A DNA stretch of 60,152 bases from Kordiimonadaceae bacterium (GTDB lineage: Bacteria; Pseudomonadota; Alphaproteobacteria; Sphingomonadales; Kordiimonadaceae), in contig JAESQS010000026.1 of the NCBI GenBank assembly GCA_016765035.1, positions 1 through 60,152 of the forward strand, written 5' to 3'. A program made the position numbers and the translations under genes. This document shows positions 20,633-56,858 of this stretch, in pieces; positions within the stretch are counted from its first letter, which is position 1; the number at the start of each line of letters is the position of its first letter. The notes under the pieces are model-generated. The model did no database searches. It was not told the origin of the DNA and worked only from the letters and a program-made list of their open reading frames with translations.

Positions 20633-22717
20633 TTAGGGGGCTTTGGCCTTTAGCTCTTTAGGCGAAATGGTAAACCGTTGCTGAAAACGCTTTGAAAAAT
20701 AACTAACATCTTTAAAGCCGCTTCGGTGGGCCGCTTGGGATATATTGGCGGCATTATTCGCCAGCAATTGGTAGGCATGTTCTAGCCGCAATGCCCGAAT
20801 AAGGGCCGCAGGTGTCTCTGCTGTCAAGTCCACCACTTTGCGGTGGAGCTGCCGGGTGCTCATGCCCATGTCTTCGGCAAGCTCAGCCACTTGGAAATTA
20901 AAGTTGCCCATATTTTGCGTGATTACTTTTTTAATCTTCTGTTCAAACGTCTGATCTTTTGACAGGATTTCATCGCCATCCATGCTGGCCGCTGTGATCG
21001 TGCGCCGGGTTAATTCTGTCTCCAGCAATTCAGTTTGTTCATCAGCGCGCTCTCTAGCCAGCTCAAGCGATGCAATCATGCCATTGAACCCTGCGGCCAA
21101 ATCGCCAAATTCATCTTGAGTATCGAGCGACAGCTTACTATCCAAGTTGCCGCTATCTACCTTAGTCAATCCAGTTGAAAGGGTGTTAAGCGGTGTGACA
21201 ATCCGCTGAACTAAATATGGCCGAATGAACATTATGACGGCAAGGATTGTGAAGACCATGTAGGCGGCTAGGGGCCACAATTTTTCGTGCACAATGGCCC
21301 TTCTGCCCAAGTTTAAATCAAACCAAACCATGGGTTGGCTTGTTACTAAAGGCAGGGCAGACAAAAGTTGTGTGCGCAACGCTAATTTAACACCATTATG
21401 GATACCAATGCTTGTATCACGCACGACTGACCCCATTACAGGAACATCCCGGTAATTCAGCCTGATACTGCCGTCGGGGCGGATAACAAGCTGCATGATA
21501 TCTGCGGGCCGGTTTCCTTTAGATTGTGTCCACGTAATGACAGCCTGATCTGCCTGAAGGGAAGACTGAAATTTATAGCCAGCCCCAGGCACACAAAAAG
21601 GCGCAATCGGCGGCTTGTCGCGTAGACATTGAATATTGGAATAAACAGGTTTTGGCCCAATACTACCGTTGAAAGGTACTACCTGCCCACTTGGCAAAAT
21701 ATGCAGGCGGTTATAATTTTGGCCATAGAAGGGGAAACTGAATGGCAGGTCTAGTGCCACCCCTTCTTTTTCTGTCGTGTGATTTAACGCGGTGGTATCA
21801 GCCCAACTGGCGGGGGTAGCTTCTGCTTGATACCTGCTGTTGTCGCGACCAATGCCAGCAGGTGTTATGATAATGCTTGATTGTTGAAGCAAGGCAACAT
21901 CCTCAAGCGCCAGCTCAGCTTGCTCTTCATGAAATAATAAAATCACAGAAGTAGCGACAGACATTAATATAACCGTCATGCCTATTGTGATCTTGGTTGC
22001 CAAACAGGCTCTGCGCTCAACATATTTAAAGAAGCCAACAACCACCAAGCCCAGAATAACAAGGTTATTGATATAATAGAGGCCGTAGGTCATCTCTTGT
22101 GGCAAGCTGGTATTCACATTCAACGCGGGCATCAAGGCACCGAATACAAATAACCCTGCGGCCAAAAACAGATAATATGTCGCTTTGCTGCGAAAATCAT
22201 CTGCTGGCAGGGCTTTCCATAGACTAAGTAAGAAAACCGGCAGTACCCGTGTTTTTTTGAAAAGAACAGCACCCAGCAGCAAAAAAGTATAGCTGGATAA
22301 TAACACCGGCAATGGCAAAAGCAGATGGTAGGCGGCACTGTCATAGGCCGCGTTGCTCGACACTGCTATGTAATAGAAATACAGCCAAATCGGAACAACA
22401 ATAGCAGCAAAGACGCGGGTGGCTAAAACATGCCGCTTGTTGTCAACCCCAGCCACGTGCCGGGAAAGTTCAACAAATGCCAAGATTTCAAAAAATATGG
22501 CGGGATATTCAAATTCGAAAAAGGGCAGTGATCCAAGAGAGTAGGTGCCTGTATCTAAAACCACAGCACCGACATAAAGCGCACAGCCAGAAAGAAAGGC
22601 CAGCATCCGACGGCGCGCAGGCCCAACTGTGGTTGAACGCCACACTTCAGCCAAAGCGACTGTTATCAACAGTAGACTTGCAAGATTCATCAAAGAAAAA
22701 TGTGAAAAATACAACAT
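20633..22717 (-). CDS. Multi-pass membrane sensor with extracytoplasmic domain, HAMP and AraC HTH
   Basis: About 8 N-terminal TM segments; LDLPFSFPFYGQNY domain; TM followed by HAMP (PLNTL...DEFGDLAAGFNGM); AraC (LAEDMGMSTRQLHRK...GFKDVSYFSKRF). Confidence 0.85.
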   Translation of the reverse strand: MLYFSHFSLMNLASLLLITVALAEVWRSTTVGPARRRMLAFLSGCALYVGAVVLDTGTYSLGSLPFFEFEYPAIFFEILAFVELSRHVAGVDNKRHVLATRVFAAIVVPIWLYFYYIAVSSNAAYDSAAYHLLLPLPVLLSSYTFLLLGAVLFKKTRVLPVFLLSLWKALPADDFRSKATYYLFLAAGLFVFGALMPALNVNTSLPQEMTYGLYYINNLVILGLVVVGFFKYVERRACLATKITIGMTVILMSVATSVILLFHEEQAELALEDVALLQQSSIIITPAGIGRDNSRYQAEATPASWADTTALNHTTEKEGVALDLPFSFPFYGQNYNRLHILPSGQVVPFNGSIGPKPVYSNIQCLRDKPPIAPFCVPGAGYKFQSSLQADQAVITWTQSKGNRPADIMQLVIRPDGSIRLNYRDVPVMGSVVRDTSIGIHNGVKLALRTQLLSALPLVTSQPMVWFDLNLGRRAIVHEKLWPLAAYMVFTILAVIMFIRPYLVQRIVTPLNTLSTGLTKVDSGNLDSKLSLDTQDEFGDLAAGFNGMIASLELARERADEQTELLETELTRRTITAASMDGDEILSKDQTFEQKIKKVITQNMGNFNFQVAELAEDMGMSTRQLHRKVVDLTAETPAALIRALRLEHAYQLLANNAANISQAAHRSGFKDVSYFSKRFQQRFTISPKELKAKAP

Positions 22718-28224: not shown

Positions 28225-28271
28225 AGCGTACCTGGCTTAATTAAAGTCAGATCCGCCCACTCCCCGCTTAC
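28222..28271 (+). repeat. MITE-like dispersed repeat, partial copy overlapping the 3' end of the NylC-like gene
   Basis: TAAAGCGTACC...ATCCGCCCACTCCCCGCTTAC matches the copies at 41345 and 45733. Confidence 0.65.
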
Positions 28272-29682
28272 CAACCTGTTGCCAGTGACCGGGGTTGAAC
28301 GTCATGGCACCCTTACCGTCAAAATAAATGCTGAGGGGATAGCGCCCCAGTATGGTGAACTCTGTTTTTGAGACAGCCAGCAATTCTGTGCGTTTGTCTT
28401 TGGTAATGGCAAATGCCCGGCGTTTGCCTGTGGCCTGCGCATATAATTTATTGCCATCAGCCGTTACCTGCACATCCACAAATTGGCTGAATTTATACTC
28501 TCCCACAAAGGCAGCTAGGTCCTCTGCACTGTGGAGAGGAGCTTCGGCTGGCTTTGGGGCCGTTGGTTGCTCTGGCACAGAGCTTAGAAGCGCATCCCAC
28601 ATAACTTCAGAGGCAATAACCCCTAGGGCCGGGGAGGAAAATGCTTGTTCTTCCAGCTCTTGCGTGGACACAGCATATAAAACGTCGCCGTCAAACTGGG
28701 TGGCAAAGGGCTGGATGCCGCGCCCCAAAGATGTATGGACCTGAACGGCAAGGCGTTTTAGGTCGGCCGGGGATAATTTCTGGTTGGTGACAATCAGGCT
28801 AATAGTCGTGTTTTTGTTGCTTGCACTCGAAGCTGGGCCGTTCCAGTCTGCGCCTCGGCTTTCGGGGAAGTTCTGCATTAAATCAGCAGTGCTGACATTT
28901 TCAGGCCAGTCTTTGCCGCCAAAACAGGCTGCTGGATTACCGTCTCGGTCGGTAATAACGCCGTAAGGGTTTGCTATTATGAAAGCCGCGACTTTAACAT
29001 CGTCGATTTGGCGAAAAGCACCACCTTGGCCAGAGAAAGCATTGCAACCAAAGAAACCACCACTTTTAGCAAAGCGCCCTGCACCATGTGCGCCGAGGGG
29101 AAATTCTCCTGTTTTGGCCGCCCGAAAAGCAGCTTGTGCCAGTTTTTTGTCGGGATAAATTTCATTGAGCCGCCGGCCGCCAAAATCAAAAATAATAGAG
29201 CCAACGGACATGGCTATATTGGCATCTGCGCCAAAGGCATTACCATCCCGAATGCCATCGTCTTTCAAGGCGGTAGCAACGGCGGTTACAGCCTCTAGGC
29301 CGTACCATGAGCCACCTGCAAAAACGACAGTGTCAAGCTCGGCAATATCATAACCAAGCGCCATATAGTCAGTATTTACAGTGCCGGGGCCACCCCCCCG
29401 TACGTCAGCGGCAACAAGAACATGCTTGTCAAAATGAAGCACAGAGACACCCGTCGGGCCTTCGGTATATTCCCCGGTGCCTACTTTTAGAATAGGCCAA
29501 TCAAACGTCAGTGTTTTTTGAGAGGGTGCATTGATGACAGGCTGTAACTTGGATTGGTTTTCTTCGGCTGTTGCCCCCCCTGAGATTGACCCTGTAGCAG
29601 CGAGTATAACAGCGGCACAGCGTGCCCATAGCCCTCTGTTTTTTGCTGTCTTTTTGGCGCGATGCAAAAGGTTCATGGTCAT
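28237..29682 (-). CDS. Peptidase S58/P1 Ntn-hydrolase, NylC (6-aminohexanoate oligomer endohydrolase)-like, with signal peptide and extra C-terminal domain
   Basis: LTFDWP, YTEGPTG, YPDKKL, GQGGAFR, N|TTISLIVTN autocleavage site, QVHTSLGRGIQPF, DGD and ALGVIASEVMWDA closely follow NylC as recalled. Confidence 0.88.
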   Translation of the reverse strand: MTMNLLHRAKKTAKNRGLWARCAAVILAATGSISGGATAEENQSKLQPVINAPSQKTLTFDWPILKVGTGEYTEGPTGVSVLHFDKHVLVAADVRGGGPGTVNTDYMALGYDIAELDTVVFAGGSWYGLEAVTAVATALKDDGIRDGNAFGADANIAMSVGSIIFDFGGRRLNEIYPDKKLAQAAFRAAKTGEFPLGAHGAGRFAKSGGFFGCNAFSGQGGAFRQIDDVKVAAFIIANPYGVITDRDGNPAACFGGKDWPENVSTADLMQNFPESRGADWNGPASSASNKNTTISLIVTNQKLSPADLKRLAVQVHTSLGRGIQPFATQFDGDVLYAVSTQELEEQAFSSPALGVIASEVMWDALLSSVPEQPTAPKPAEAPLHSAEDLAAFVGEYKFSQFVDVQVTADGNKLYAQATGKRRAFAITKDKRTELLAVSKTEFTILGRYPLSIYFDGKGAMTFNPGHWQQVGKRGVGGSDFN

Positions 29683-29788
29683 ATTCCTATCTCATGCCGA
29701 GGCTGTTTATCATGCCAAAAGGGGGCCAGTTTCTTGTGAGTTTAGGGGGAGAAAGATAGCATTCGAAGATGTTATCTGTGTCGCATAT

Positions 29789-29805
29789 GGTGCGTCTTAT
29801 GCACC
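29789..29805. promoter_or_regulatory. LysR-type box GGTGCGTCTTATGCACC upstream of the NylC-like gene
   Basis: T-N11-A interrupted palindrome; recurs at 33698 and 36987. Confidence 0.7.
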
Positions 29806-29809
29806 GGGC

Positions 29810-29904
29810 CTTGGCACTTGCCCGCTTTTATTAAGTTTTATCAGCTTTAGAGAGTAAGCGGGGAGGGGGCGGATATGGTACTCATTAAGACGGATGCGCA
29901 ATAG
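29810..29904 (-). repeat. MITE-like dispersed repeat
   Basis: Reverse complement reads GCGCATCCGTCTTAATGAGTACCATATCCGCCCCCTCCCCGCTTACTCTCT. Confidence 0.75.
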
Positions 29905-29905
29905 G

Positions 29906-30910
29906 CTAATCCCGAAAGGAAGATAGCAACCAGTTTCTGAAGCGGCGCAGGGAGGGCATTTCCCACCTGTCACTCCGTGCCATAAACAAATAGGCGGCCA
30001 TGGTGAGGTTTTCGTCAAAATTTATATTACCAGCGGTGATGTCAATAAGCCTGCCTGCCTGTAAGTCATCGGCTGCTACCATTCTGTTACTCAGTGCAAT
30101 CCCGCGACCATGCCGGGCGGCATCAAGTGTCAGGTGGCCTTGCCATAAAAGGGGCCCTGTCAGGTCCTCTTCTGGCTCAACGCCGTGGGCTCTCAGCCAA
30201 GTTTCCCATGAATCAAAATCACCTTCATGTAAAAGCTGATGCTGTAGCAAGTCGCCCGGTGTTTTTATTTTCGGATGGTCTGCCAGATATTGAGGATTGG
30301 CAACGCAAATGACTGGCAACCGTGAAATCTCCTGGCTCTTTACGCCTTTAGGAATTTGGTAAGGGGTGCCATACCTAGGAATAAGCCTGATATCAACATC
30401 AGCTTCTTGCGCCATTAGGTCTGGACTGCTGTCTGTTGGACGAACTTCTATCGGGCTATCTGGCTGTACGCGTTCAAAAGCACCCAAATGCCCTGTAAAC
30501 CAGTGAAAAGCAAATGCTGGCATACACCAGATGTTGAGCGCCTGTTGTTCACTGAGCTTCATTAAATCTGACGTGGCATTGGAGATTAAATCAATCGCTG
30601 TAGCGATCTGCTCGTGATAGCGCCTGCCGTCATCTGTCAGGATAACACCGGTTGAGGTGCGCTCTACTAGGACAGTGCCCGTCCATGCTTCGATGGCTCG
30701 AATATGGCGGCTGATAACAGCATGGTCTCTATCTAGCCCAATGGCGGCCTTGCGAACACCGCCGAGGCGTGCCACTGCATCAAAGGCCCTAAGGGCCTCA
30801 AATGGTGGCATCGCCTTGCGAGAGGGCAAGTTGCTTGCGATGGGTGTGACGCTTTTCTTTTTGGAAGAAGGCATACTATCCTCAATATCACTTTGAAACC
30901 TGTATGTCAT
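29906..30910 (-). CDS. LysR family regulator (GcvA-like)
   Basis: MPPFEALRAFDAVARLGGVRKAA HTH; GcvA-like effector domain. Confidence 0.93.
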   Translation of the reverse strand: MTYRFQSDIEDSMPSSKKKSVTPIASNLPSRKAMPPFEALRAFDAVARLGGVRKAAIGLDRDHAVISRHIRAIEAWTGTVLVERTSTGVILTDDGRRYHEQIATAIDLISNATSDLMKLSEQQALNIWCMPAFAFHWFTGHLGAFERVQPDSPIEVRPTDSSPDLMAQEADVDIRLIPRYGTPYQIPKGVKSQEISRLPVICVANPQYLADHPKIKTPGDLLQHQLLHEGDFDSWETWLRAHGVEPEEDLTGPLLWQGHLTLDAARHGRGIALSNRMVAADDLQAGRLIDITAGNINFDENLTMAAYLFMARSDRWEMPSLRRFRNWLLSSFRD

Positions 30911-30957
30911 TCAGTCCAGTACAATGCAAATGTTTTGCGTTTGCGACTTAATATTAT

Positions 30958-32361
30958 TTAACACGGTTCACTAGGCGCTACTTCTAATTTCAGGTTGCGC
31001 GTGAAGGGCCGCCTGAAAAGGGCAACAAGCACGGCTCCTGCCCCAACAATGGCCGCATGGATTAACCAAAAAGTGGGTTCTGAAACTTGTTCATAAAAGC
31101 GGCCAAGCCACCCGCTGACCATGCCGCCAATAAAGAGCGACAGATAATAAGAGCCTACAAGCATAGCGTTTACAGCGTCTGGCGCCGTGCGTGATACAAG
31201 CGCAAGCATAATCGGCCCCACATACAAAAATCCGATAGCACAAATAAAATGGAATATAGTTGGCCATATCAAACCGAGAGGCTGACCCCCTGATACTATT
31301 TCCCCAAGCGCAAGCCAAACACAGGCCCCGGCGAAAACAGCACAGCCAATGATGATTTTGGTGAGGTCGCCGGGTTCTGCTTTCCGATTACTTTGAACGC
31401 GCCATAACCACAACACAAATGGAGCAAGGAGTAATACAGCGAGCGAATCCAATGCTTGAAACCACGTGATGGGGACTGATGTATCAAAAAAGGCCCGGTC
31501 TACGCGGTCCCTAATCCAAAGGGGGTAGGTATTCCAAACTTGTGTTTGTGCTGTCCAGAAGAGCGCTGCAATAAGAAACAAGGCGAAAATACTGGCAATA
31601 GTGCGGCCATCGCCTTCCTGCAATGTTGGTTTTTCACCTTTTTCAATTTTCTCACTGTCAGCCGGCAAATACTTGCGGCCTGAAAGATAAATAACGATAC
31701 CAACAAGCATACCAATGCCAGCAGCACCAAAGCCATAATGCCAACCATATAGTTCGCCGAGTGTGCCGCAGACCAAAGGGGCGAGAAAAGCGCCAACATT
31801 GATGGACATGCAATAGAGGGAAAAGGCCGAATCTCGCCGTTGGTCATTTTTGGCGTAGAGCCGCCCAACTTGCGCTGCCAAATTGCCTTTCAGAAGGCCT
31901 GCGCCAACAACCAAAGCAGATAAGGCGAATAGAAAAGCGGCTTCAAAAGCCATTAGGAAGTGACCAATAGCCATCATAGCCGCCCCGAGCAGGACAGCTT
32001 TTTGCTGCCCCATAACACGGTCGCCCAACCAGCCACCAAACACGGGCATCATGTAAATTAGGCCAATATATAAACCAAAAATTTGGGTGGCGAGTGCCTG
32101 AATGGAAAGCGGGCCGAAAACGGTTTCAAGCGCAGATCTGAAGCCGGCAAAAGCGACAATATTTTCGATGGCACCCGGATGCAGGAGATACCCTGCCATA
32201 TAAAGGACAAGCAAAGCCTGCATACCGTAGAATGAAAAGCGTTCCCACGCTTCCGTAAACACGATGAAGGCCAACCCTTTTGGGTGCCTCAGAAAATCAC
32301 CTTCCGCGCCTCGGTTCATGGGCGTAAGCTCTTTGCTGGCGGTTTCAAGATTTTCGTGCAT
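30958..32361 (-). CDS. POT/PTR proton-dependent oligopeptide transporter
   Basis: FTEAWERFSFYGM (ExxERFxYY-like), INVGAFLAP and GWHYGF motifs. Confidence 0.95.
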   Translation of the reverse strand: MHENLETASKELTPMNRGAEGDFLRHPKGLAFIVFTEAWERFSFYGMQALLVLYMAGYLLHPGAIENIVAFAGFRSALETVFGPLSIQALATQIFGLYIGLIYMMPVFGGWLGDRVMGQQKAVLLGAAMMAIGHFLMAFEAAFLFALSALVVGAGLLKGNLAAQVGRLYAKNDQRRDSAFSLYCMSINVGAFLAPLVCGTLGELYGWHYGFGAAGIGMLVGIVIYLSGRKYLPADSEKIEKGEKPTLQEGDGRTIASIFALFLIAALFWTAQTQVWNTYPLWIRDRVDRAFFDTSVPITWFQALDSLAVLLLAPFVLWLWRVQSNRKAEPGDLTKIIIGCAVFAGACVWLALGEIVSGGQPLGLIWPTIFHFICAIGFLYVGPIMLALVSRTAPDAVNAMLVGSYYLSLFIGGMVSGWLGRFYEQVSEPTFWLIHAAIVGAGAVLVALFRRPFTRNLKLEVAPSEPC

Positions 32362-32417
32362 TCTAAATCCTCGTCCTCTTTACTAGCATTGTCAGGGCTT
32401 GTGGTGACCCATATTTT

Positions 32418-33587
32418 TTATTTCAGCGCGCCGACGACAGCGTTGAAAAAATCATTATCCAGAATGAATTCTGTATGCATAGGTTTGGCGCGGGCACTCC
32501 AGACAATGACCACTGTCTGTTCGGCCGGGTTTATATACATATATTGCCCAAAGATGCCACGAGCCCCAAAACCCTGCTGAAATGTTGCGCCTTCGGGGGG
32601 CTGAACTGGCCACCACATGAAACCATAATTTAAGGGTTCACCGGCTATTTCTCTGGGTGTTGTTGCTTGCTCTAGCCAATCATCAGGGAGAATTGCGGTG
32701 TTTCCAATTTTGCCGCCCTTCATAACAAACTGGGCAAATCTGCCATAGTCCCGCAGCGTGGCGCTTATACCGCTGCCGGCGACTTCAAGGCCGTCCGCTG
32801 CTTCCAGCCACCAGCTTGCTTCTGCTTCCATGCCGAGTTTTGACCATATTTTTCTCGATAAATAGTCAGACAGATACTCTCCCGTAGCAGCATATAACAA
32901 CTCGCCGACCACATGCGTTTCGCCAGTACTGTAGTTCCACCGTGTGCCCGGCTCTGCCAAGCGGGGCAGTTTAGCCATATATTTTAAGATGGCACCGGGT
33001 TTTTGGGCTAATTGCAATTCCAGCACAGCACGGCGTTCCGAGCTTGGGTTGGTGTGGGTTTCATCCCACTGCACACCTGAGGTCATTTGAAGCAGGTGAC
33101 GTATGCTGACACCGTCGTAGCTGCTGCCTTTTAACGATGGCAGGTATGTAGCCAGTTGATCATCAAGGCTTTTGATAAAGCCGTCTTTAATCGCGGCCCC
33201 AACAAGCGTTGTGCTAACAGATTTTGCCATGGACATAGACATCCATTTGGTGTTGGCCGTATTCCCGTATTCATAGCTTTCGTGGGCGATGGCGCCATTT
33301 TTAATGACGAGAAGCGCTGTTACCCGGTTTCTGCCAACATAGTCATAAATATCATAGGTGCCATGGTCTGTTTTAATCTCCATATCAGTGAGCGATTTTG
33401 GCGCATAGCTGAAATATTGAGACTTAACATCCTTGCCTCTAGAAACAGTGCGGGTGGGAAATAATTGGCTGATGTTGCGAAAGGTGTGAATTTGCTGAGT
33501 TGGCATAAGCCTGCCTGCATAAACATCTCGTGCAGACCCAATGCTTTGGGGGACAGCTTTAGCTGAAGTTATACCTGTCATACTCAT
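32418..33587 (-). CDS. Serine hydrolase, NylB (6-aminohexanoate-dimer hydrolase)-like beta-lactamase fold
   Basis: MSMAKS (SxxK), HLLQMTSG, WNYST and ARGIFGQY motifs; no signal peptide. Confidence 0.85.
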   Translation of the reverse strand: MSMTGITSAKAVPQSIGSARDVYAGRLMPTQQIHTFRNISQLFPTRTVSRGKDVKSQYFSYAPKSLTDMEIKTDHGTYDIYDYVGRNRVTALLVIKNGAIAHESYEYGNTANTKWMSMSMAKSVSTTLVGAAIKDGFIKSLDDQLATYLPSLKGSSYDGVSIRHLLQMTSGVQWDETHTNPSSERRAVLELQLAQKPGAILKYMAKLPRLAEPGTRWNYSTGETHVVGELLYAATGEYLSDYLSRKIWSKLGMEAEASWWLEAADGLEVAGSGISATLRDYGRFAQFVMKGGKIGNTAILPDDWLEQATTPREIAGEPLNYGFMWWPVQPPEGATFQQGFGARGIFGQYMYINPAEQTVVIVWSARAKPMHTEFILDNDFFNAVVGALK

Positions 33588-33675
33588 CCTTAAAAAGCGG
33601 CATCATATTTTTAGAAATAGTACCCACATGACCAAAACCTGCATTAAACCGTAGGGTATTGGGCTTTTCTAGGTA

Positions 33676-33714
33676 AGGTGCGAACTAGGCTATGGGCGGT
33701 GTTTGCGAGGCACC
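33676..33714 (-). promoter_or_regulatory. LysR-type box plus secondary half-site in the divergent hydrolase/TonB receptor promoter
   Basis: GGTGTTTGCGAGGCACC (33698-33714) and AGGTGCGA (33676-33683), 14 nt apart. Confidence 0.7.
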
Positions 33715-33850
33715 GCCTGATGCGCCATTGGCATCTATTATGCTGGCTTTTGCTGTTTATCCTATCCAAGCAATCAAAAATGTAAATGGCGTTCGTCTGG
33801 AGTTTGCGAGGGCAAGCCGGAGGGTTGGAAGCGCCTGGGAGGAGATAATA

Positions 33851-35971
33851 ATGAATAAGCATACCTTTAAATATTTACTTGGTTTATCTGGGTTCGCCTT
33901 GATGCAAAGTGCAATACAGGCGCCCATAAGTGCTGCGGACGAAGCAGATGAAACTGTCAACTTCGAAGAAATTATCGTTACAGCAAGCAAGCGCTCACAG
34001 CGGTTGATCGATGTGCCAATGGCCATTGCAACAATCAGCGGTGCAGACCTGCAAAAGCGTGGTGTTGATACAATTCAAGACCTGTCTTTTGCTGTTCCAG
34101 GTTTGACAATGCGGGAAGATGGCCCTGGTAGTTACCAGATCTTCTTGCGCGGTGTCGCCAACGCCCACGGTGGTGGTGCGCTTACTAGTGTTTATCAAGA
34201 TGAAGTGCCAATGGTACTGACCGGTTTTGATGTATTGCCAACCCGCACGATGGATTTAGCCCGTGTGGAAGTGTTGAAAGGCCCTCAGGGCACACTTTAT
34301 GGTCAAGGCGCAGTTGGTGGCGCTGTTCGCTATATTACCAATCGCCCTAATCTTGATACTTTTGAAGGTAGAATTGAAGGCGAGCTGGAAACAGTCAAAA
34401 CGGGCGACATGGGTGTAACTCTTGTAGGTGTTTTGAACGTTCCTATTGTTGAAGATCGGTTTGCTGTCCGTATTGCGGCTACCGTAAAAAGTGGCGGTGG
34501 GTGGCAAGACCAGCCCGCTGCGGGCATTGAAAACGGAAACGGTGAAGAGCTGACAAATGTGCGCGTTAGAGCATTGTGGAAACCATCAGATGAACTTGAA
34601 ATTCTTGGTACATTCGTTTCTTACCGTGCTGAATATGAGTTAGGGCAAGGCTATGAGCAGCCAGATAGGACTATATTCGTAGCCATTGACCCTTCCAAAA
34701 CATTAATTCCTAAAATCTGGGATTATGAGCTTTATAATCTGGAAGTTTCTTATGACTTTGGTGGTTTTGAGCTGCTAAGCTCAACAAGCTATGTTGACCA
34801 CACTCACCAATATCCCTTTGCCTACTTTGGTGGGCCGCAAACAATTTATGGCGGCGCTCTTTCCGGGAATGGTAACCGGTATAACCCCGGTAGCCAGTTT
34901 AGCCAAGAAGTGCGCTTAACATCTACGGGTGATGGACCGCTTCAGTGGACTGTTGGTGGTTTTTACCGTGATATGGACCGCTCGTTAACAGCGCTTTTCG
35001 AGTTTCAGTTTGGTGCTTTCATAGCGCCAGAAGCTGAGTTCTTTTCTTCAGGTACAGCGAAATCAATTGCCGTGTTCGCAGACGTTTCTTATGAAATTAC
35101 TGAAAAGCTAACGGCCGGTGTTGGTGTCCGTTACTTTGAAGAAGATGGTGTTGCCGTGAGCAACAAGGCACCTGACCAAGTAATACAAGAAGCAACTTTT
35201 GATTCTGTCGATCCACGCTTTTACTTAAGCTATGCAGCAATCGATGATGTAAATATCTATGCTAGTGCGGCAAAAGGTTTCCGTAGTGGTGGTTTTAATG
35301 CAGCACCGCTTCCTGCATTTGATCCTGAAACCTTATGGAGTTATGAGCTGGGCGTTAAAGGCAGTTTCTTTGACGGCACTCTATATCTTGATATGGCTGG
35401 TTTCTACACTGTGTATAGCGACATGCTCCGTCGTGGCCTGATCTTCCTTGGTGGTGACCTTGGCTTCCAGTCACTTGTAAGCAACATTGGTGAAGCTGAA
35501 ATAAAAGGCTTTGAGACTTCTTTTGCTTGGAAAGCAACCAGCGCTTTGACCATCAGTGGTTCTGCTACATTTATGAGCGCAGAAGTGACAGAGCTTGATG
35601 AAGGCACAGAATCTAACAATGTTGGGGACCCAATTGATTATGTTCCTGACTTCAGCGGGACACTCAGTGCAAATTACGACTTTAATTGGTCTGATGAAAT
35701 GCCAGGATTTGCCCGCTTAGACTTTAGCTACCGTGATAAAATGCCTTATGTTGACCTAACAAGTTTCCCACTTGAGAACACACCACAATTCTCTGATTCC
35801 ATTGGCTTGTTGGATGCGCGTATTGGTCTTACGTCAGGTAAAATTAATGTAGAGCTTTATGCGAAAAACCTTACGAACGTTAATAAATATATTGACCCGT
35901 ATCGCGCTTGGAACAATGCCAACCGTACGCACCCGCGCACAGTTGGTATTAAAGTTGGCCTTGATTTCTAA
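33851..35971 (+). CDS. TonB-dependent receptor
   Basis: Signal peptide, EEIIVTASKR, VEVLKGPQGTLYG and terminal LDF; GGAGGAG RBS before ATG 33851. Confidence 0.95.
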   Translation: MNKHTFKYLLGLSGFALMQSAIQAPISAADEADETVNFEEIIVTASKRSQRLIDVPMAIATISGADLQKRGVDTIQDLSFAVPGLTMREDGPGSYQIFLRGVANAHGGGALTSVYQDEVPMVLTGFDVLPTRTMDLARVEVLKGPQGTLYGQGAVGGAVRYITNRPNLDTFEGRIEGELETVKTGDMGVTLVGVLNVPIVEDRFAVRIAATVKSGGGWQDQPAAGIENGNGEELTNVRVRALWKPSDELEILGTFVSYRAEYELGQGYEQPDRTIFVAIDPSKTLIPKIWDYELYNLEVSYDFGGFELLSSTSYVDHTHQYPFAYFGGPQTIYGGALSGNGNRYNPGSQFSQEVRLTSTGDGPLQWTVGGFYRDMDRSLTALFEFQFGAFIAPEAEFFSSGTAKSIAVFADVSYEITEKLTAGVGVRYFEEDGVAVSNKAPDQVIQEATFDSVDPRFYLSYAAIDDVNIYASAAKGFRSGGFNAAPLPAFDPETLWSYELGVKGSFFDGTLYLDMAGFYTVYSDMLRRGLIFLGGDLGFQSLVSNIGEAEIKGFETSFAWKATSALTISGSATFMSAEVTELDEGTESNNVGDPIDYVPDFSGTLSANYDFNWSDEMPGFARLDFSYRDKMPYVDLTSFPLENTPQFSDSIGLLDARIGLTSGKINVELYAKNLTNVNKYIDPYRAWNNANRTHPRTVGIKVGLDF

Positions 35972-35998
35972 AGACTGAAGTCGCACCCAAACATTGGG

Positions 35999-36044
35999 GA
36001 GGCACGTTCGGCAGCATGAAAATGCGCGGCGTGCCTTTTCTTTT
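35999..36044 (+). terminator. Probable intrinsic terminator
   Basis: GAGGCACG...CGTGCCTT hairpin followed by TTCTTTT. Confidence 0.55.
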
Positions 36045-36120
36045 AGGGGCGGTGTTTACCCAACGCCAAGGCTGGCTGTTTTCACGGTGACGTAATGAAG
36101 GCGAGCTTGTGCTGCCGCAT

Positions 36121-36205
36121 AAAAATACTGCTCAAACACTGCCAAAGTTACCGCGAAAGTTACCGCCAAAATTACCGGCAAAACACTGCCAAAATACTGA
36201 CTGAA
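36121..36205. repeat. Degenerate 11-12 bp tandem repeat (~7 units, AAARTTACYGCC-like)
   Basis: aaaatactgctc aaacactgccaa agttaccgcgaa agttaccgccaa aattaccggcaa aacactgccaaa atactgac. Confidence 0.65.
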
Positions 36206-36229
36206 ACTTGTTTAAAATGAGAGACAGCA

Positions 36230-36964
36230 ATGCCTGATGAGCTGACAACCCGTGTGCCTTTAGCAAAAACCTGGGATGACGTTGGGCGTACTATGTTCAC
36301 GCCTGAACATTATGAACTTCCGGAACAAGTGCAGATGGTTTCTTTTGCGGCAGCAAATCCTGTACCGCAGGTATTTACCGACCATGAGGGGCAAATGCGT
36401 GCGTCGGCTATCCCGATGATACCTGTTAAAAATAACAGTTCAGAGATCAGTTCATTTGTGGGGCATTTGGCTTCTCGCAACGGCCAGACAGAGGCAATAA
36501 AAGCAGGCGCTGTGGGCCTTGCTTTATTCAGTGGACCCAGCGCGTATATTTCTCCCCGGTGGTTTCGAAAAAATATCACTGCGCCCACCTTTAGCTATGT
36601 TTCTGTACAGGTACGCGGGACATTTGTACCCCTCTCAGGCGAAGAAGAAACGTGGGAAGTGATCCGCAATACAGTGGCGCATATGGAAGCCATGGTAACA
36701 GCGCAATCGGGCGGAAAGCCTTGGCGCATGAAAGAATTACTAACAGAGCAAATGGAACGGTATCTGCCGATGGTTTTGGCTTTTCGATTTGAAATAGACA
36801 GCATTGAAGGGGTGAATAGGCTCAATCAAGAAAAAGACGTCGTGGATATGGAAAATATTATCGATGGCCTGAAAGAGACAGGCGCTGCTGGGTCAATGCA
36901 GATAGCTGCTTTGATGCAGGAAAATTTGGATGCGATTTTGTCCCATGCTGATGGGCAAGATTGA
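36230..36964 (+). CDS. PaiB-like FMN/heme-binding split-barrel protein
   Basis: GHLASRN, FSGPSAYISPRWF, PTFSYVSVQVRG and RLNQEK motifs. Confidence 0.8.
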   Translation: MPDELTTRVPLAKTWDDVGRTMFTPEHYELPEQVQMVSFAAANPVPQVFTDHEGQMRASAIPMIPVKNNSSEISSFVGHLASRNGQTEAIKAGAVGLALFSGPSAYISPRWFRKNITAPTFSYVSVQVRGTFVPLSGEEETWEVIRNTVAHMEAMVTAQSGGKPWRMKELLTEQMERYLPMVLAFRFEIDSIEGVNRLNQEKDVVDMENIIDGLKETGAAGSMQIAALMQENLDAILSHADGQD

Positions 36965-36986
36965 TGATTTTATGGGGTAAAATGGT

Positions 36987-37025
36987 GGTGCTTTTTGCGC
37001 ACCATAATTTGTCCGATTCGCACCT
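36987..37025 (+). promoter_or_regulatory. LysR-type box plus secondary half-site upstream of the aminotransferase
   Basis: GGTGCTTTTTGCGCACC (36987-37003), then 14 nt, then TCGCACCT. Confidence 0.7.
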
Positions 37026-37176
37026 TCCTGCAAGGGGTGTAGCGGCATAAAATCCTGACTGAATGATGGAATTTATATGAGTCCCAACTTGGCCTGAGTA
37101 TTCTTGCGCATTCCCAGCGCGAGGGTAGTCAGGCCTGCTTTCTGGGCTCTATCGTGACTAAAGGCTGGAGTATTAT

Positions 37177-38550
37177 ATGTTTTACGTGCAACGCGGGACT
37201 AAAGAGTGGCAAGATATGGATGTTGCCCATCATCTTCACCCCTTTACCGACCCACAGTATTTTGACACCAAAAAGCCCCTTGTTATTACTAAAGCAGAGG
37301 GTTCTCATGTGTGGGATTCAGAAGGCCGTAAAATTCTTGATGGCATGGCTGGCCTGTGGTGCGTGAATGTTGGCTATGGTCGTTCGGAGCTTATCGAAGC
37401 ATCAGACCGGCAAATGCGGGAATTGGCGTATTATAATACGTTTTTCCAAACGGCGACCCCAACACAAATTGAATTGGGTCATGTGCTATCTGGTGTAACC
37501 CCAGAAGGGCTTGATCATTTTTTCTTTGCCAATTCAGGGTCAGAAGCCAACGATACAGTGGTGCGCATGGTTCGGCATTTTTGGGAAGTAGAAGGCCAAC
37601 CAGAGAAACAAGCTATCATTGGCCGTACCCTTGGCTATCACGGCAGTACAGTTGCAGCAACCAGCCTTGGTGGTATGAAGCCAATGCATGATCTGGGCAA
37701 ATCTTTGCTGCCAGGCTTTGAGCATATTACGCACCCTCATTGGTATTTAAATGGGGAAGATCTTTCTCGCGAAGACTATGGCCTGAAAGCTGCGCAGGCG
37801 CTTGAGGAAAAAATCCTTGAGCTAGGGGCAGACACAGTGGCTGCTTTCATTGGCGAGCCAATACAGGGTGCGGGCGGCGTGATTGATCCTCCCGCTACAT
37901 ACTGGCCAGAAATTCAGCGTATTTGTCGTAAATATGACATTCTACTTGTTGCGGATGAAGTGATATGTGGGTTTGGTCGCGTAGGTCATTGGTTTGCGTC
38001 AGAAGCTTATGGCATTGAACCTGATTTGATGCCGATGGCGAAGGGTCTTTCTTCTGGCTATCTGCCTATCGCCGCAGTTGCCTATAATGACCGTGTTCAT
38101 GCCACTCTTAGAAAAGGCGGGGTTTTCTCGCATGGCTATACATATTCGGGCCACCCTGTTGCCTGTGCTGTGGCGCTCGCTAACATTCAATTGATTAAAG
38201 ATGATGGCCTGATTGATCGCGTGAAAACGGATATTGGCCCCTATTTTCGGGCGAAAATGGACGCTGTGCTTGCTAGCCACCCTCTTGTTGGGGAAGTTCG
38301 GGGTGCTGGGCTTCTTGCGGGTATCCAATTGGTTAAAAATAAGGAAACCAAAGAGCTGTTTCCTACAGAGCAGGCAATCGCGACTAAATGCCGGGATTAT
38401 TGCCTTGAGCATGGGGTGATTATGCGCGCAGTGGGTCAGTCTATGGCGGCAAGCCCTCCGCTTATTATCACTAAGCCTGAGGTGGATACTCTGGTGGAAG
38501 TTGCCAAGGTATCGCTTGATCTAGCAGCCAAAGATGTTGGGATTCTATAA
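37177..38550 (+). CDS. Class III omega-aminotransferase (SpuC-like)
   Basis: DGMAGLWCVNVGYGR, SGSEANDT, ADEVICGFGR, AKGLSSGYLP and HGYTYSGHP motifs. Confidence 0.95.
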   Translation: MFYVQRGTKEWQDMDVAHHLHPFTDPQYFDTKKPLVITKAEGSHVWDSEGRKILDGMAGLWCVNVGYGRSELIEASDRQMRELAYYNTFFQTATPTQIELGHVLSGVTPEGLDHFFFANSGSEANDTVVRMVRHFWEVEGQPEKQAIIGRTLGYHGSTVAATSLGGMKPMHDLGKSLLPGFEHITHPHWYLNGEDLSREDYGLKAAQALEEKILELGADTVAAFIGEPIQGAGGVIDPPATYWPEIQRICRKYDILLVADEVICGFGRVGHWFASEAYGIEPDLMPMAKGLSSGYLPIAAVAYNDRVHATLRKGGVFSHGYTYSGHPVACAVALANIQLIKDDGLIDRVKTDIGPYFRAKMDAVLASHPLVGEVRGAGLLAGIQLVKNKETKELFPTEQAIATKCRDYCLEHGVIMRAVGQSMAASPPLIITKPEVDTLVEVAKVSLDLAAKDVGIL

Positions 38551-40008
38551 ATGAGCGCACCTGTTGCTGGCAGTTTTTTAGCCAGAGTATTTGACGCGGC
38601 TTTACCGGGCGGTGTGAATGCATCTAGTTTCCCTGTGTTTAACCCTGCAACTGGGGTTAAGATTACGCAAGTAGCTGATATGGGGCCTGCTGAAACTGAG
38701 GGCGCTATAGCTAAGGCTTATGAAGCACAGAAGCTATGGGCCAAGGAAACCGCAAAAGCCCGCGCTAAACTGCTGATGGCATGGTATGATCTTATCTTGG
38801 AGCATCAGGAAGATCTGGCCCAGTTGCTGACCCTTGAAATGGGTAAGCCGCTTGTTGAAGCCCGTGGTGAAATTGGGTTTGGCGCTACTTTCATTGAGTG
38901 GTTTGCAGAAGAAGGCAAGCGTTTGTACGGGGATATAATCCCTACAAATATGCCGGGTCGGCGTTTGATGGTGCTGAAGCAGCCTATCGGCGTTGTGGCG
39001 GCCATTACGCCGTGGAATTTCCCAAATGCAATGATCACTCGTAAAATTGCGCCGGCACTGGCCGCTGGGTGTAGCTGTGTATTAAAGCCTGCGGAAGACA
39101 CGCCTTTGTCGGCGGTGGCGCTCGCTATTCTTGCGGATGACGCGGGGTTGCCGGATGGTTTGATAAATATTATCACAGCTCAAAATGCGCCAGCAGTGGC
39201 GAAAGTTCTTACTGAACACCCAGATATACGAAAACTATCTTTCACGGGTTCTACACGTGTTGGAAAGCTTTTGATGAAGGGCTGTGCGGACAGTGTTAAA
39301 AAAGTGTCGCTTGAACTTGGTGGCAATGCACCTTTCATTGTTTTTGAAGATGCAGATATTGATGCTGCCGTTCAGGGGGCTTTGCTGTCGAAGTACCGGA
39401 ATGCAGGCCAAACCTGCGTAAGCAGCAACCGCTTTTATATCCATGAAAATGTGTTCAGCGCGTTTGCTGAAAAACTGACTGCCGCAGTTGACGTTATGAC
39501 CGTAGGGGACGGCATGGTTGATGGCACTACCGTAGGGCCACTTATCAATAATGCTGCGCTTACCAAAGTGTTGGGGCTTGTTAAAGGCGCATTAGATGCG
39601 GGTGCTAAAGCTGTTACTGGTGGGGGGGTACACCCGCATGGTGAAAATTACTTTGAGCCTACTATTTTGGTTGATGCCAAAAATGATATGGAAATTGCTC
39701 AGGCTGAAATATTTGGCCCTGTGGCTGTGCTCTATTCTTTTAAAACGGAAGAAGAGGTTACCCTGTCAGCCAATGATACGCCCTATGGCCTTGCAGCTTA
39801 TTGCTACACACGCGATATGGCGCGTTGCTGGCGCATGAGTGAAGCTTTGGAATATGGCATGGTGGCGATAAATGAAGGCACTGTTGCCAGTGAAGCTGCT
39901 CCTTTTGGCGGTGTTAAACAATCTGGCATTGGCCGCGAAGGGTCAAAATACGGGCTGGATGATTTCACCGAAATTAAATGTGTCAGCATGGCAGGCATTG
40001 GCGGTTAG
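38551..40008 (+). CDS. gabD: NAD(P)-dependent succinate-semialdehyde dehydrogenase family
   Basis: ITPWNFP, FTGST, LELGGNAPF, RNAGQTC, EIFGP and GREGSKYG motifs. Confidence 0.9.
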   Translation: MSAPVAGSFLARVFDAALPGGVNASSFPVFNPATGVKITQVADMGPAETEGAIAKAYEAQKLWAKETAKARAKLLMAWYDLILEHQEDLAQLLTLEMGKPLVEARGEIGFGATFIEWFAEEGKRLYGDIIPTNMPGRRLMVLKQPIGVVAAITPWNFPNAMITRKIAPALAAGCSCVLKPAEDTPLSAVALAILADDAGLPDGLINIITAQNAPAVAKVLTEHPDIRKLSFTGSTRVGKLLMKGCADSVKKVSLELGGNAPFIVFEDADIDAAVQGALLSKYRNAGQTCVSSNRFYIHENVFSAFAEKLTAAVDVMTVGDGMVDGTTVGPLINNAALTKVLGLVKGALDAGAKAVTGGGVHPHGENYFEPTILVDAKNDMEIAQAEIFGPVAVLYSFKTEEEVTLSANDTPYGLAAYCYTRDMARCWRMSEALEYGMVAINEGTVASEAAPFGGVKQSGIGREGSKYGLDDFTEIKCVSMAGIGG

Positions 40009-40111
40009 AAACTCTCTAAATATGTAAGCAATTTGCTTAACTGGTGGCGCAGGTCTATATCTCGCACAGGTTAGCATGAAGGATGTGGTGGCCGCTTTGT
40101 AAGGAGTTGCT

Positions 40112-41347
40112 GTGACAGACCTTCAACATAATGCTCAAAACATGCCTCAAAATTCTTCAAGATTTCGCGTGCCAAAACTAGCACCGGAAAGCTTGTTGGC
40201 CGTTATCTTGCTGTCCTTTCTGGGCACCGCAGGCGTGTTTTATGCCAATATTTTGGCAGCCCTCGTAAGTGGGCTTGTTGAAGGGTTAAAATATACTCAG
40301 GAAACAGCAGGGTATGTCGCTGCTGCTAATGTTTACGGCGCTGCCTTTGGGGCTTTCGCTGCTGTCTTTGCCGTGAAGCGGGTGGCATGGAAGCCAGCGG
40401 CTTTTTGTTCTTTGCTGGCTTTGATGGCAATTGATTTAGTGTCCACGCAAATAACGTTGAGCGATATATTAATACCGGTTCGCTTTGGCCATGGGCTTGT
40501 CGGGGGCTTTCTTGTTGGAGTGGCTTTTTCTGTCTTTGCGCGCACCACCAGCCCTGATCGCACCTTTGGCATGTTGTTGGTGACACAAGCTGGCATTGGC
40601 GGTACAGGCCTTATGTTTTTACCAAAATTGGTACCGGTTTACGGGACATCTGTGCTGTTTCTTGCTCTGTTTAGCTTTAGTGCTGTCACCGTGTTTATGC
40701 TGCCATTTCTTTCTGATTATCCCGTCAAAAATACAGCAACCGACAAGCCAAACGAAGGCATGAAGAATAGGCCAGAAGAAGGCACAAATGAAAGTAAGTT
40801 GATGCTTGGGCCGTTGCTTCTTGCTTTGTTGGGAATATTTGTTTTTCAGGCAAGCAATATGGGGCTGGCTGCCTATATGATCGAACTGGGAAAAAGTTTT
40901 GGTATTGCGACGGATGTGGTCAGTACGCACATTGGCGTTGCCCACTGGATTGCTGTGCTGGGTGCCTTGTTTGTCTATTTGGTTGGTACCAAATACGGCA
41001 GGGTGAAGCCGTTGCTCGTCGGCTTTTTTTTTACACTGGTGGGCATGAGCATTTTGCATCTGTCAGGCATAGCGCCGTGGTTTTTGGTGGGGAATATCAT
41101 TGTCAGTACCACTTGGGCATTCCTTATCCCCTATTTACTGGGTATGTGCGCCAAGTTTGATGCTGCAGGTCAGATGGCGACACTGTCAGGCTTTTGCTCA
41201 AAGATGGGGCTTGCAAGCGGGCCTATGGTGGCAGCGATGGTTGTTGGCAAAGGCAATTATGACCTGATTTTAAATATGGCCATTATCGGCATTGCCCTAG
41301 GCGCGTTGATTGTGTTGATGCCCGCGCGTTTTTTGGACAAGGCATAG
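40112..41347 (+). CDS. MFS transporter
   Basis: About 12 hydrophobic segments with a central hydrophilic loop. Confidence 0.88.
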   Translation: MTDLQHNAQNMPQNSSRFRVPKLAPESLLAVILLSFLGTAGVFYANILAALVSGLVEGLKYTQETAGYVAAANVYGAAFGAFAAVFAVKRVAWKPAAFCSLLALMAIDLVSTQITLSDILIPVRFGHGLVGGFLVGVAFSVFARTTSPDRTFGMLLVTQAGIGGTGLMFLPKLVPVYGTSVLFLALFSFSAVTVFMLPFLSDYPVKNTATDKPNEGMKNRPEEGTNESKLMLGPLLLALLGIFVFQASNMGLAAYMIELGKSFGIATDVVSTHIGVAHWIAVLGALFVYLVGTKYGRVKPLLVGFFFTLVGMSILHLSGIAPWFLVGNIIVSTTWAFLIPYLLGMCAKFDAAGQMATLSGFCSKMGLASGPMVAAMVVGKGNYDLILNMAIIGIALGALIVLMPARFLDKA

Positions 41348-48501: not shown

Positions 48502-49722
48502 ATGCATCAGTCAGACACACCTTTAAAAGAGCTAACATTAAGTGATTTCAAGGTAAAAAACCTTGTACCATTCTATGCAGAATTACGCGAAAACAACCCT
48601 GTCGCTCAGGTCCAAGATGGAAAAGGCGGTCATGTCTGGGTCGTTAGTCGCTATCAGGATGTCCATTATACCTTAAGTCACCCAGAAGCTTTTTCATCAA
48701 AAGCAATCAGCGAGATTATGCACCCCGAAGGCATAAAGGAAGATTGCCGCCGCGATTTGTTTGTTCTTTCTCAAGATGGCCGGGAGCATAAAAGAAACCG
48801 TGGCTTGATGACGAAAGCCTTCACATCAAAAGTTACTAAATCTTTGCTTCCTGATATTCGGGGCGCAGCAGAAAAAATGGTAGCCAGCATCAAGCGTGGC
48901 GAAAAAATATCCTTTATAGACAGGTTTGCGCACCCTTATGTTACGGCAATTACAGACAAGGTTTCGGGTATTGAACAAACGTTAAGCCAGAAGGAAATGG
49001 ATACTTGGCTGACTGTGTTGGGGGAGGTTATCACGGGTACTCCTGATAAAAAGCGGTTGGCGAGCATTGAAAAAATCATTCAGCGCCAAACCAACAAGTT
49101 TACCAAGACTATTGCCCAAAAGAAGCAATGCCCCGGCACTGATCTGATTTCAGAACTTATCGGGGCGGAAGTAGACGGCGAAAAACTATCTGATGTAGAT
49201 TTATTAAATGCCGTGGAATTAATTTATGTTGGTGGCTTTCATCCTCAAGTCCAGATGTTGTGTCGGGCTATGGTTCAGTTATCCAATAATGAGGGCTTGT
49301 TTAAGGCTTTAAAAGCGTCTTCTGAGAAAGTACCGGCCTTTGTTGACGAGTTGTTACGGCATCAAACGCTTGCGCCGGGAACAATTCGTAAAACTCTTCA
49401 GGAAGTTACATTTCAAGGGGTGACAATCCCTGCTGGGGCTACCGTCATTTGCCTGATCAGTTCAGCCAACCGTGACCCTTCTGTTTTTCCTGATCCTGAT
49501 ACATTTGATATAACCCGCCCTAACGTTAAGAAACATCTTGCTTTCGGCTCTGGCTCGCATCTTTGCCTTGGGCGAGCACTGGCTAAACAGCAAATGATTA
49601 CTGGCCTTGAAGCTATTATTAAAAATTTCGACAGTATTACGTGCTTACCAATAGAAGAAATTGAAGAACATAATACGTGGATGTTTAGATACATCCCTAA
49701 TCTCAGCGTTATTTTTTCATAA
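48502..49722 (+). CDS. Cytochrome P450
   Basis: ELLR (ExxR), SANRDPSVFPDPDTFD and HLAFGSGSHLCLG heme motif. Confidence 0.95.
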   Translation: MHQSDTPLKELTLSDFKVKNLVPFYAELRENNPVAQVQDGKGGHVWVVSRYQDVHYTLSHPEAFSSKAISEIMHPEGIKEDCRRDLFVLSQDGREHKRNRGLMTKAFTSKVTKSLLPDIRGAAEKMVASIKRGEKISFIDRFAHPYVTAITDKVSGIEQTLSQKEMDTWLTVLGEVITGTPDKKRLASIEKIIQRQTNKFTKTIAQKKQCPGTDLISELIGAEVDGEKLSDVDLLNAVELIYVGGFHPQVQMLCRAMVQLSNNEGLFKALKASSEKVPAFVDELLRHQTLAPGTIRKTLQEVTFQGVTIPAGATVICLISSANRDPSVFPDPDTFDITRPNVKKHLAFGSGSHLCLGRALAKQQMITGLEAIIKNFDSITCLPIEEIEEHNTWMFRYIPNLSVIFS

Positions 49723-49755
49723 AAAATTATAAGCAAAATCAGGGGGATTTTTCCT

Positions 49756-56772: not shown

Positions 56773-56858
56773 ACAGTAAAAAGCCCTTGTGGATTGTTCC
56801 ATGCTTGATAGGGTGCCTTTTTGATTTTCTCAGGTATTTTATTGAGCTAGGGGGTTCT

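Follow-up and report, generated by a model that had tools for sequence, protein, structure and literature searches.

We analyzed a 60,152-nucleotide stretch of DNA (the window) from a Kordiimonadaceae bacterium (GenBank assembly GCA_016765035.1, contig JAESQS010000026.1), whose parent assembly measures 3.36 Mb and is 76% complete. A first-pass annotation had proposed that nine genes at 28237-41347 form a nylon-oligomer-like catabolic system. We observed that eight of the nine genes make up a conserved module, which excludes the major facilitator superfamily (MFS) transporter. The module is a real, old and apparently co-regulated amide-catabolic system that shares the logic of the nylon route and is a different pathway. 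Judged from sequence comparisons, we think it somewhat probable that the module takes up and breaks down desferrioxamine-type hydroxamate siderophores for carbon and nitrogen. Hydroxamate siderophores appear to fit best among the substrates named in the annotation. We favored desferrioxamines because of the PF04299/NohD neighbors of NylC-type genes, the C5, PepSY and receptor genes near the module, the match in Niveispirillum irakense, and the head-to-tail omega-amino-acid chemistry of these compounds. The PaiB-like PF04299 gene, to which the annotation gave no role, is the most informative gene.

An eight-gene module and its palindrome

All nine open reading frames (ORFs) were confirmed at 28237-41347, and their Pfam/NCBIfam families matched those the annotation had named. 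The serine hydrolase, POT, LysR and S58 genes lie on the minus strand, divergent from the TonB receptor, PF04299, transaminase, dehydrogenase and MFS genes on the plus strand. The features are as follows.

28237-29682, minus strand: S58 peptidase, a NylC-like N-terminal nucleophile (Ntn) hydrolase and predicted exported periplasmic amide cutter (PDB search, fold search, residues)
29789-29805, no strand: perfect palindrome GGTGC-N7-GCACC upstream of the S58 gene, a predicted LysR operator (motif match)
29906-30910, minus strand: GcvA-type LysR regulator, predicted to bind the palindrome (Pfam/NCBIfam)
30958-32361, minus strand: POT/PTR proton symporter, predicted importer of hydrolysis products (TIGR00924 above cut-off)
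32418-33587, minus strand: PIB-1-like serine hydrolase of the beta-lactamase fold, predicted cytoplasmic amidase (PDB search, residues)
33698-33714, no strand: palindrome with one mismatch in the divergent promoter region between the serine hydrolase and TonB receptor genes (motif and matrix scan)
33692-35971, plus strand: TonB-dependent receptor ORF, likely start at 33851 (Pfam plug and barrel)
36230-36964, plus strand: PF04299 (PaiB/KtzT/NohD family) protein, predicted heme-dependent N-hydroxylamine dehydratase (family, residues, tree)
36987-37003, no strand: perfect palindrome upstream of the aminotransferase-dehydrogenase pair (motif and matrix scan)
37177-38550, plus strand: class-III aminotransferase, a SpuC-type polyamine/omega-amine:pyruvate transaminase (PRK07480, PDB search)
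38551-40008, plus strand: GabD/SSADH-type semialdehyde dehydrogenase abutting the transaminase (TIGR01780, 645 bits; cut-off 646)
40112-41347, plus strand: MFS transporter, a local addition outside the conserved module (0 cluster loci)
52111-53344, plus strand: possible distal member, a PepSY-TM gene (52238-53344) preceded by a one-mismatch palindrome (52111-52127; motif)

A full-length S58 ortholog occurred in 10 of 60 relatives, and a serine-hydrolase ortholog (E < 1e-140) occurred in the same 10, so the grouping goes beyond chance. A close PF04299 ortholog was present in 8 of these 10 relatives and in none of the other 50. The 60 relatives share kinship and are not independent, so the co-occurrence counts should be read as patterns instead of statistics. 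A scan of named genomes, which overlapped in part with the relatives, included four loci from one assembly and missed many orthologs, returned 44 loci at 44-67% identity to the S58 protein and 23 actinobacterial-type nylC loci. The nearest named S58 homologs were from Emcibacter and Kordiimonas (64-69% identity), which points to an alphaproteobacterial host of marine type.

We then counted partner genes in the 38 long loci (at least 11 kb, taken with 10-kb flanks around S58 orthologs). A TonB receptor was present in 31, the serine hydrolase in 29, POT in 27, LysR in 26, the transaminase in 23, PF04299 in 19 and the dehydrogenase in 16. At least four of the five partners LysR, POT, serine hydrolase, TonB receptor and transaminase were kept in 27/38, showing that the gene set is conserved together elsewhere. 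Gene order was shuffled among Kordiimonas, Asticcacaulis, Steroidobacter, Niveispirillum and others. The cluster itself held no transposase or integrase, and its G+C content was similar to that of the flanks.

The MFS gene, which the annotation had included, was missing from every cluster locus fetched, and we rejected it as a member. Its orthologs occurred in 15/60 relatives, unlinked to the module; 8 of these 15 had no S58 ortholog, and the five ortholog loci viewed had other neighbors. MFS orthologs at L153 and L155-L157 adjoin a conserved protein of ~290 amino acids, with a GabD-like gene in two of the loci.

We observed the palindrome GGTGC-N7-GCACC in intergenic DNA of the window, perfect at 29789 and 36987 and with one mismatch at 33698 and 52111. 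In 40 hand-chosen cluster loci (785 kb), the perfect form matched 49 times, with no match in the four actinobacterial loci among them, compared to 0 matches in 14 control loci (253 kb). Changing the spacer from 7 to 5, 6, 8 or 9 gave 3-5 matches. Within the window alone the signal was weak (5 palindromes with one mismatch allowed, 2.4 expected; 7/100 shuffles reached 5), and a stricter 12-base pattern in five genomes was uninformative. Support for the palindrome comes from its position and from other genomes, not from the window count.

A matrix trained on 27 loci of other genomes placed its top four sites in this genome all in intergenic DNA: two belong to the cluster, and the others precede a beta-propeller amidohydrolase gene and a beta-helix protein gene. 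The site upstream of the S58 gene (29789) had the second-best score genome-wide, and the best and third-best sites precede these two unlinked genes, whose orthologs sit inside the cluster in relatives. The beta-propeller amidohydrolase (contig C344, 2854-6156) is 64% identical to an in-cluster gene of relative G005, and the beta-helix protein (contig C99, 17579-18712) is 40% identical to an in-cluster gene; both are likely regulon members. The T-N11-A core of the palindrome fits LysR binding. These data suggest that the module is likely controlled by its own LysR through the palindrome. Scans for sigma-70 promoters and terminators stayed at chance level.

The NylC-like hydrolase and its partner enzymes

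The S58 protein had been called NylC-like, and the PDB search, the fold search and a tree agreed with that rather than with a DmpA/BapA assignment. Its best PDB matches were NylC (E = 4e-54), Nyl12 (1e-51), Nyl50 (3e-25) and ThnT (5e-17); neither DmpA nor BapA matched in the PDB at E 0.1. A fold search of the structure model (mean predicted local distance difference test score, pLDDT, 89) returned NylC first (E = 5e-30, 36% identity) and DmpA/BapA at E = 1e-12 and 15-18% identity, and we rejected the DmpA/BapA assignment. The protein was 39-43% identical to authentic NylC (locus L080). In a quick tree of 40 of the 81 collected rows, chosen for spread and holding no DmpA rows, the protein fell into an exported, C-terminally extended group that joined NylC against the short paralogs (Shimodaira-Hasegawa-like approximate likelihood ratio test, SH-aLRT, 100).

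Asn291/Thr292, Asn238, Asp331 and Asp333 align with NylC N266/T267, N219, D306 and D308, of which we take Asp306 and Asp308 to be functional residues. The Asn/Thr autocleavage site (N291/T292, with Thr as nucleophile) was invariant in 116 alignment rows. The position of NylC Lys189 is occupied by Gly209. Gly is the residue of the exported clade here, and an almost invariant Arg precedes it by six residues, so that Arg203 or Lys206 may stand in for Lys189; a passage of PMC6021441 presumes Lys189 and Asn219 to be catalytic in NylC. The N-terminus is basic and then hydrophobic, and the S58 protein is predicted to be exported to the periplasm. The serine hydrolase, transaminase, dehydrogenase and PF04299 protein scored lower. 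The compartments proposed in the annotation, with periplasmic and cytoplasmic cleavage steps, fit this signal-peptide-like N-terminus, seen only in the S58 protein among the five enzymes scored. Its C-terminal extension of ~100 amino acids is beta-rich and matched DUF3471 weakly (E = 8e-5, below cut-off). A beta-lactamase-fold hydrolase at 56787-58481 (plus strand) also carries DUF3471.

The serine hydrolase had been described as NylB-type, a closest relationship that did not hold. Structure 8RLJ, which we take to be PIB-1 of Pseudomonas aeruginosa, was far nearer (E = 1.6e-93) than the best NylB (E = 4e-21). Ser119/Lys122/Tyr219 align with NylB S112/K115/Y215, so the Ser-x-x-Lys and Tyr triad is present. 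Identity to an authentic NylB-type protein was 29%; D181 falls in a gap and N266 is replaced by Gly, both presumably binding residues of NylB. The YST and AQG motifs of 8RLJ agree with the PIB-1 preprint. This likeness, with 8RLJ as closest solved structure, would suit a PIB-1-like beta-lactamase whose neighbors are incidental. We consider that hardly credible, since the protein has no signal peptide by N-terminus scoring and co-occurs strictly with S58, and since PIB-1 opens nitrocefin 'with very low efficiency' according to a passage of the preprint. Relatives G016 and G045 carry a second PIB-1-like hydrolase (45%) in another catabolic locus (L146, L147), next to a TonB receptor, HupE/UreJ, FAD oxidoreductases, a dehydrogenase and a LysR.

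The transaminase scored 721 bits against PRK07480, above cut-off, and its PDB matches (5TI8 at E = 1e-176; 5TI8, 4A6R, 6HX9 and 9J4Z all at E = 1e-171 or better) were to SpuC/polyamine:pyruvate transaminases, so the label NylD-like was not supported. A C6/adipate route found no support either, the only acyl-CoA dehydrogenase met in the cluster loci being glutaryl-CoA dehydrogenase.

Nylon itself is an unlikely substrate. The NylC-type catalytic residues and the identity to authentic NylC would fit an adaptation to synthetic nylon-6 oligomers by a NylC-NylB-NylD-NylE set, and passages of PMC11601465 report that many NylC homologs cleave nylon as a side activity. Yet the divergence of the orthologs (44-71% identity, across alpha- and gammaproteobacteria) far predates nylon, the serine hydrolase is distant from NylB, and no adipate beta-oxidation genes occur among the conserved neighbors. 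The flank-like G+C and the lack of mobile genes are also unlike the near-identical nylC-nylB copies. We give this explanation very little credence.

Desferrioxamines as the proposed substrate

The PF04299 protein provides the N-hydroxylamine clue. It keeps His79 and Thr120, and the catalytic Lys is replaced by Arg197. In a tree of 52 rows, with apparent duplicates excluded, a cluster-associated clade of 28 proteins (96/92 support), the window protein among them, was separate from both the paralogs and the NohD-like group; the window protein thus lies outside the NohD clade, and it lacks the NohD cluster signature (His2, Phe4). Passages of PMC12576811 describe NohD as a heme enzyme that dehydrates N-hydroxylamines and releases ammonia from N5-hydroxy-ornithine, call its native role obscure, and report that the Thr/Lys pair is widely kept in the family and that NohD K167A is partly active. 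PaiB binds heme too (PMC12603108, in part).

A PF04299 gene was also present in 13/23 actinobacterial-type nylC loci, arranged LacI-peptide ABC transporter-nylC. The one such neighbor tested, at L075, matched NohD best (E = 7e-48), carries the NohD cluster signature and groups in the NohD clade. NylC-type hydrolases thus adjoin PF04299 genes from two branches of the family, one of them NohD-like. In L074, L075 and L089-L095 (Leucobacter, Agrococcus, Propionibacteriaceae) we observed a chromosomal LacI-peptide ABC transporter-nylC-NohD-like-C45 hydrolase cluster. Nine of ten near-identical-nylB loci had no PF04299 gene within the fetched DNA. That the near-identical nylC-nylB copies mostly lack a NohD-like gene suggests that a cluster of this kind was the source from which the nylon module was excised. 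Relative G049 (L139) holds a row of TonB receptor, PepSY, PF04299, amidase and C45 hydrolase genes, a second possible hydroxamate-related cluster.

The neighbors also gave chain-length and iron-uptake clues. Glutaryl-CoA dehydrogenase (E = 7e-175) was found in 3/38 long loci and at L143, and a CoA-transferase that scored highest against the succinate-glutarate CoA-transferase model (508 bits, cut-off 750) in 5/38 and at L143, so glutarate genes flank the module in several genera; both are also present elsewhere in this genome. PepSY-TM genes occurred in 6/38 long loci, and orthologs (51-52%) of the window's PepSY-TM gene lie inside the cluster in relatives G023 and G016. The palindrome at 52111 before that gene was not among the 40 best matrix matches listed for the genome. 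At Emcibacter L029 a FauA/FhuE-type receptor (676 and 613 bits; cut-offs 900 and 666) directly follows the S58 gene. We found no IucA/IucC synthetase in this 76% complete genome or in the 10 cluster-bearing relatives, which fits scavenging of siderophores; on this ground we rejected recycling of a self-made siderophore. Three Asticcacaulis loci (L031, L032 and L034, 7486-9782) have a phosphotransferase and a class-III pyridoxal phosphate enzyme added to the cluster. This pair presumably resembles a hydroxylysine kinase and phospho-lyase and hints at hydroxylated amine fragments.

Desferrioxamine degraders provided a further match. Niveispirillum irakense, which we take to be the present name of Azospirillum irakense, was named as test species together with the genome scan that returned its locus. 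Strain DSM 11586 itself reportedly degrades desferrioxamine, and most other Azospirillum species are said not to. Its genome holds orthologs of all eight module genes. The S58 (60%), serine hydrolase, POT, transaminase and receptor genes are co-oriented, and another contig carries GabT, the LysR ortholog (57%), an MFS of a different kind, the dehydrogenase and a PF04299 gene of the cluster clade. The S58 ortholog was present in 5/130 genomes of the family of N. irakense, a set listed without genus or quality. Passages of four papers (PMC11800396, PMC6270104, PMC10866069, PMC12364333) describe degradation of desferrioxamines by A. irakense via a specific hydrolase acting on amide bonds, with the iron-free form as substrate and a supply of carbon and nitrogen. 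Desferrioxamines are oligomers of N-hydroxy-N-succinylcadaverine (PMC12161575, in part). Like nylon-6 oligomers, they link omega-amino-acid units head to tail.

We propose the following route for cyclic or linear oligomers of N-hydroxy-N-succinyl-cadaverine or -putrescine. The TonB receptor would bring the iron-free siderophore into the periplasm, with PepSY-assisted iron removal first in some hosts. The exported NylC-like hydrolase would then cleave amide bonds in the manner of NylC acting on nylon-6 oligomers, possibly helped by the unlinked beta-propeller amidohydrolase of the same regulon, and POT would import the monomers or dimers (step 3). In the cytoplasm, the PIB-1-like serine hydrolase would act on the remaining amide or hydroxamate bond to give succinate and N-hydroxycadaverine (step 4), and the PF04299 heme protein would dehydrate the hydroxylamine to an imine, which would yield ammonia and an aldehyde (step 5). 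The SpuC-type transaminase and GabD-type dehydrogenase would turn the C5 chain into glutarate, and the route would end with glutarate CoA-transferase and glutaryl-CoA dehydrogenase, whose genes lie at other places in the genome.

Several observations weigh against desferrioxamine catabolism. According to a passage of one review, hydroxamate groups 'remained intact' in the reported degradations, and steps 4 and 5 are therefore undocumented. The PF04299 protein of the window is no NohD ortholog and has Arg for the catalytic Lys; the family is widespread (4/14 control genomes), is missing from half of the long loci and has no gene within 10 kb of the Steroidobacter cluster loci. Eight of the 38 long loci hold at most one partner gene. 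The S58 group is a large one, with at least 120 clusters at 57% identity or more, so that finding it in N. irakense is more unusual against the background of that species' family than it is overall; isolated copies also occur, such as one carried by a Sinorhizobium plasmid, where an amidase and a transposase adjoin it. Glutarate arises from lysine too, and a SpuC-GabD pair serves any diamine.

Nor did the receptor or the promoters of the module show iron-related signals. The TonB receptor, whose start at 33851 is preceded by a GGAGGAG ribosome site, best matched the pesticin receptor in the PDB (E = 7.5e-27); all NCBIfam receptor models fell below cut-off, and it belongs to no named siderophore-receptor family. 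The FoxA model reached 31 bits against a cut-off of 1300. Scans with two iron-box patterns gave 3 matches (4.2 expected) and 7 (8.9 expected), with no iron-box-like site above chance in the module promoters. Catabolism of the apo-siderophore requires neither a FoxA-like receptor nor an iron box, yet the two results lend no support.

These gaps would suit a module that degrades non-hydroxylated amides of diamines, lysine or omega-amino acids (acyl-polyamines, phenolamides, isopeptides), with PF04299 as an accessory or side-product handler. That view accommodates the SpuC-type transaminase with GabD, GabT in 12/38 long loci, the lysine-catabolism-like neighbors at L021, the kinase/phospho-lyase pairs in the 3 Asticcacaulis loci, and PF04299 in only 19/38. 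It leaves unexplained the two PF04299 branches beside NylC-type genes, the PepSY and FauA/FhuE neighbors, and the N. irakense match; we regard it as rather unlikely. Alternatively, the target may be a hydroxamate siderophore of another class (hydroxy-lysine or hydroxy-ornithine), or the aim may be iron release instead of carbon. N5-hydroxy-ornithine is the tested substrate of NohD, and PepSY genes and a FauA/FhuE receptor are hallmarks of iron uptake. We judge this improbable: the diamine-type transaminase, GabD and the glutarate genes indicate full diamine catabolism, control apparently runs via the LysR palindrome and not an iron box, and the reported degradation concerns the iron-free form.

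Beyond the module, the PepSY-TM gene stands in a row with a cytochrome P450 and a second TonB receptor (48502-53344). On the minus strand, a TonB receptor lies in two ORFs (5727-7898; 6633-7898 and 5727-6584) that one tblastn match spans, possibly a broken gene. A protein of 1807 amino acids (13724-19147, minus strand) with DUF4347, immunoglobulin/cadherin-like domains and RTX calcium-binding repeats resembles a surface adhesin, and a membrane protein fused to HAMP and AraC domains (20633-22717, minus strand) is a one-component sensor-regulator. A phage-type integrase (1690-2724) lies close to the contig start.

Known systems and significance

We compared the module with characterized systems. 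The nylon-6 oligomer pathway of Arthrobacter (Paenarthrobacter) sp. KI72 uses NylC, NylB, NylD1 and NylE1 (PMC6752018, in part). The module resembles it in the sequence of endo-cut, second hydrolase, transamination and oxidation to a dicarboxylate, and its S58 protein shares with KI72 NylC the Asn/Thr self-cleavage site. Unlike KI72 NylC, the S58 protein is predicted to be exported, is C-terminally extended and has Gly for Lys189. Unlike the KI72 route, the module is old and diverged, combines a PIB-1-like second hydrolase with a TonB receptor, POT, a PF04299 gene and a LysR palindrome, and is flanked by C5 rather than C6 downstream genes.

The amide hydrolysis of desferrioxamines for carbon and nitrogen by A. 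irakense and a Mesorhizobium loti-like isolate is what we propose here; the literature passages on it name no genes, and the link to the module is one of co-occurrence only. The window's PF04299 protein belongs to the family of NohD (PMC12576811) and keeps the heme His and catalytic Thr, and close NohD homologs adjoin actinobacterial nylC; the window protein differs in its clade and in its Arg for Lys. The serine hydrolase shares the SxxK and YST motifs of PIB-1, from which it differs in lacking a signal peptide and in its link with a catabolic module. For DesG, an amidase of Streptomyces coelicolor, removal of the succinyl group from N-hydroxy-N-succinylcadaverine has been proposed (PMC12161575, in part); DesG differs in being a biosynthetic, iron-regulated member of the penicillin-amidase family, a family absent by Pfam among the nine window proteins. 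The transaminase and dehydrogenase are of the types of the Spu polyamine route of Pseudomonas (SpuC, GabD/GabT). Unlike that route, the conserved neighbors include neither gamma-glutamylation genes nor a polyamine ABC transporter. SpuC and GabT/GabD also handle nylon monomers in P. putida (PMC11879879, in part).

A broader proposal, which we hold more tentatively, is that the module is the genetic pathway of desferrioxamine catabolism, that hydroxamate siderophores may be the ancestral substrates of the NylC family in proteobacteria and actinobacteria, and that their breakdown may be the native role of NohD-type enzymes. Among the results listed in searches of the literature, mostly outside subscription journals, there was no link between NylC or nylonases and siderophores. 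In the parts seen, PMC11601465 describes the native function of NylC homologs as undetermined and its 95 NylC homologs as not near nylA/nylB genes, and bacterial desferrioxamine degradation is on record since the 1990s. One locus could answer three questions: the role of NylC homologs, the role of NohD, and the genes of desferrioxamine degradation. The proposal is directly testable, since the genes occur in a type strain and desferrioxamine B is sold commercially. If true, it would explain why nylon cleavage is a common side activity in the NylC family, would put exported NylC variants on offer for polyamide recycling, and would add a guild of siderophore eaters to the cycling of iron and nitrogen in the sea and in soil.

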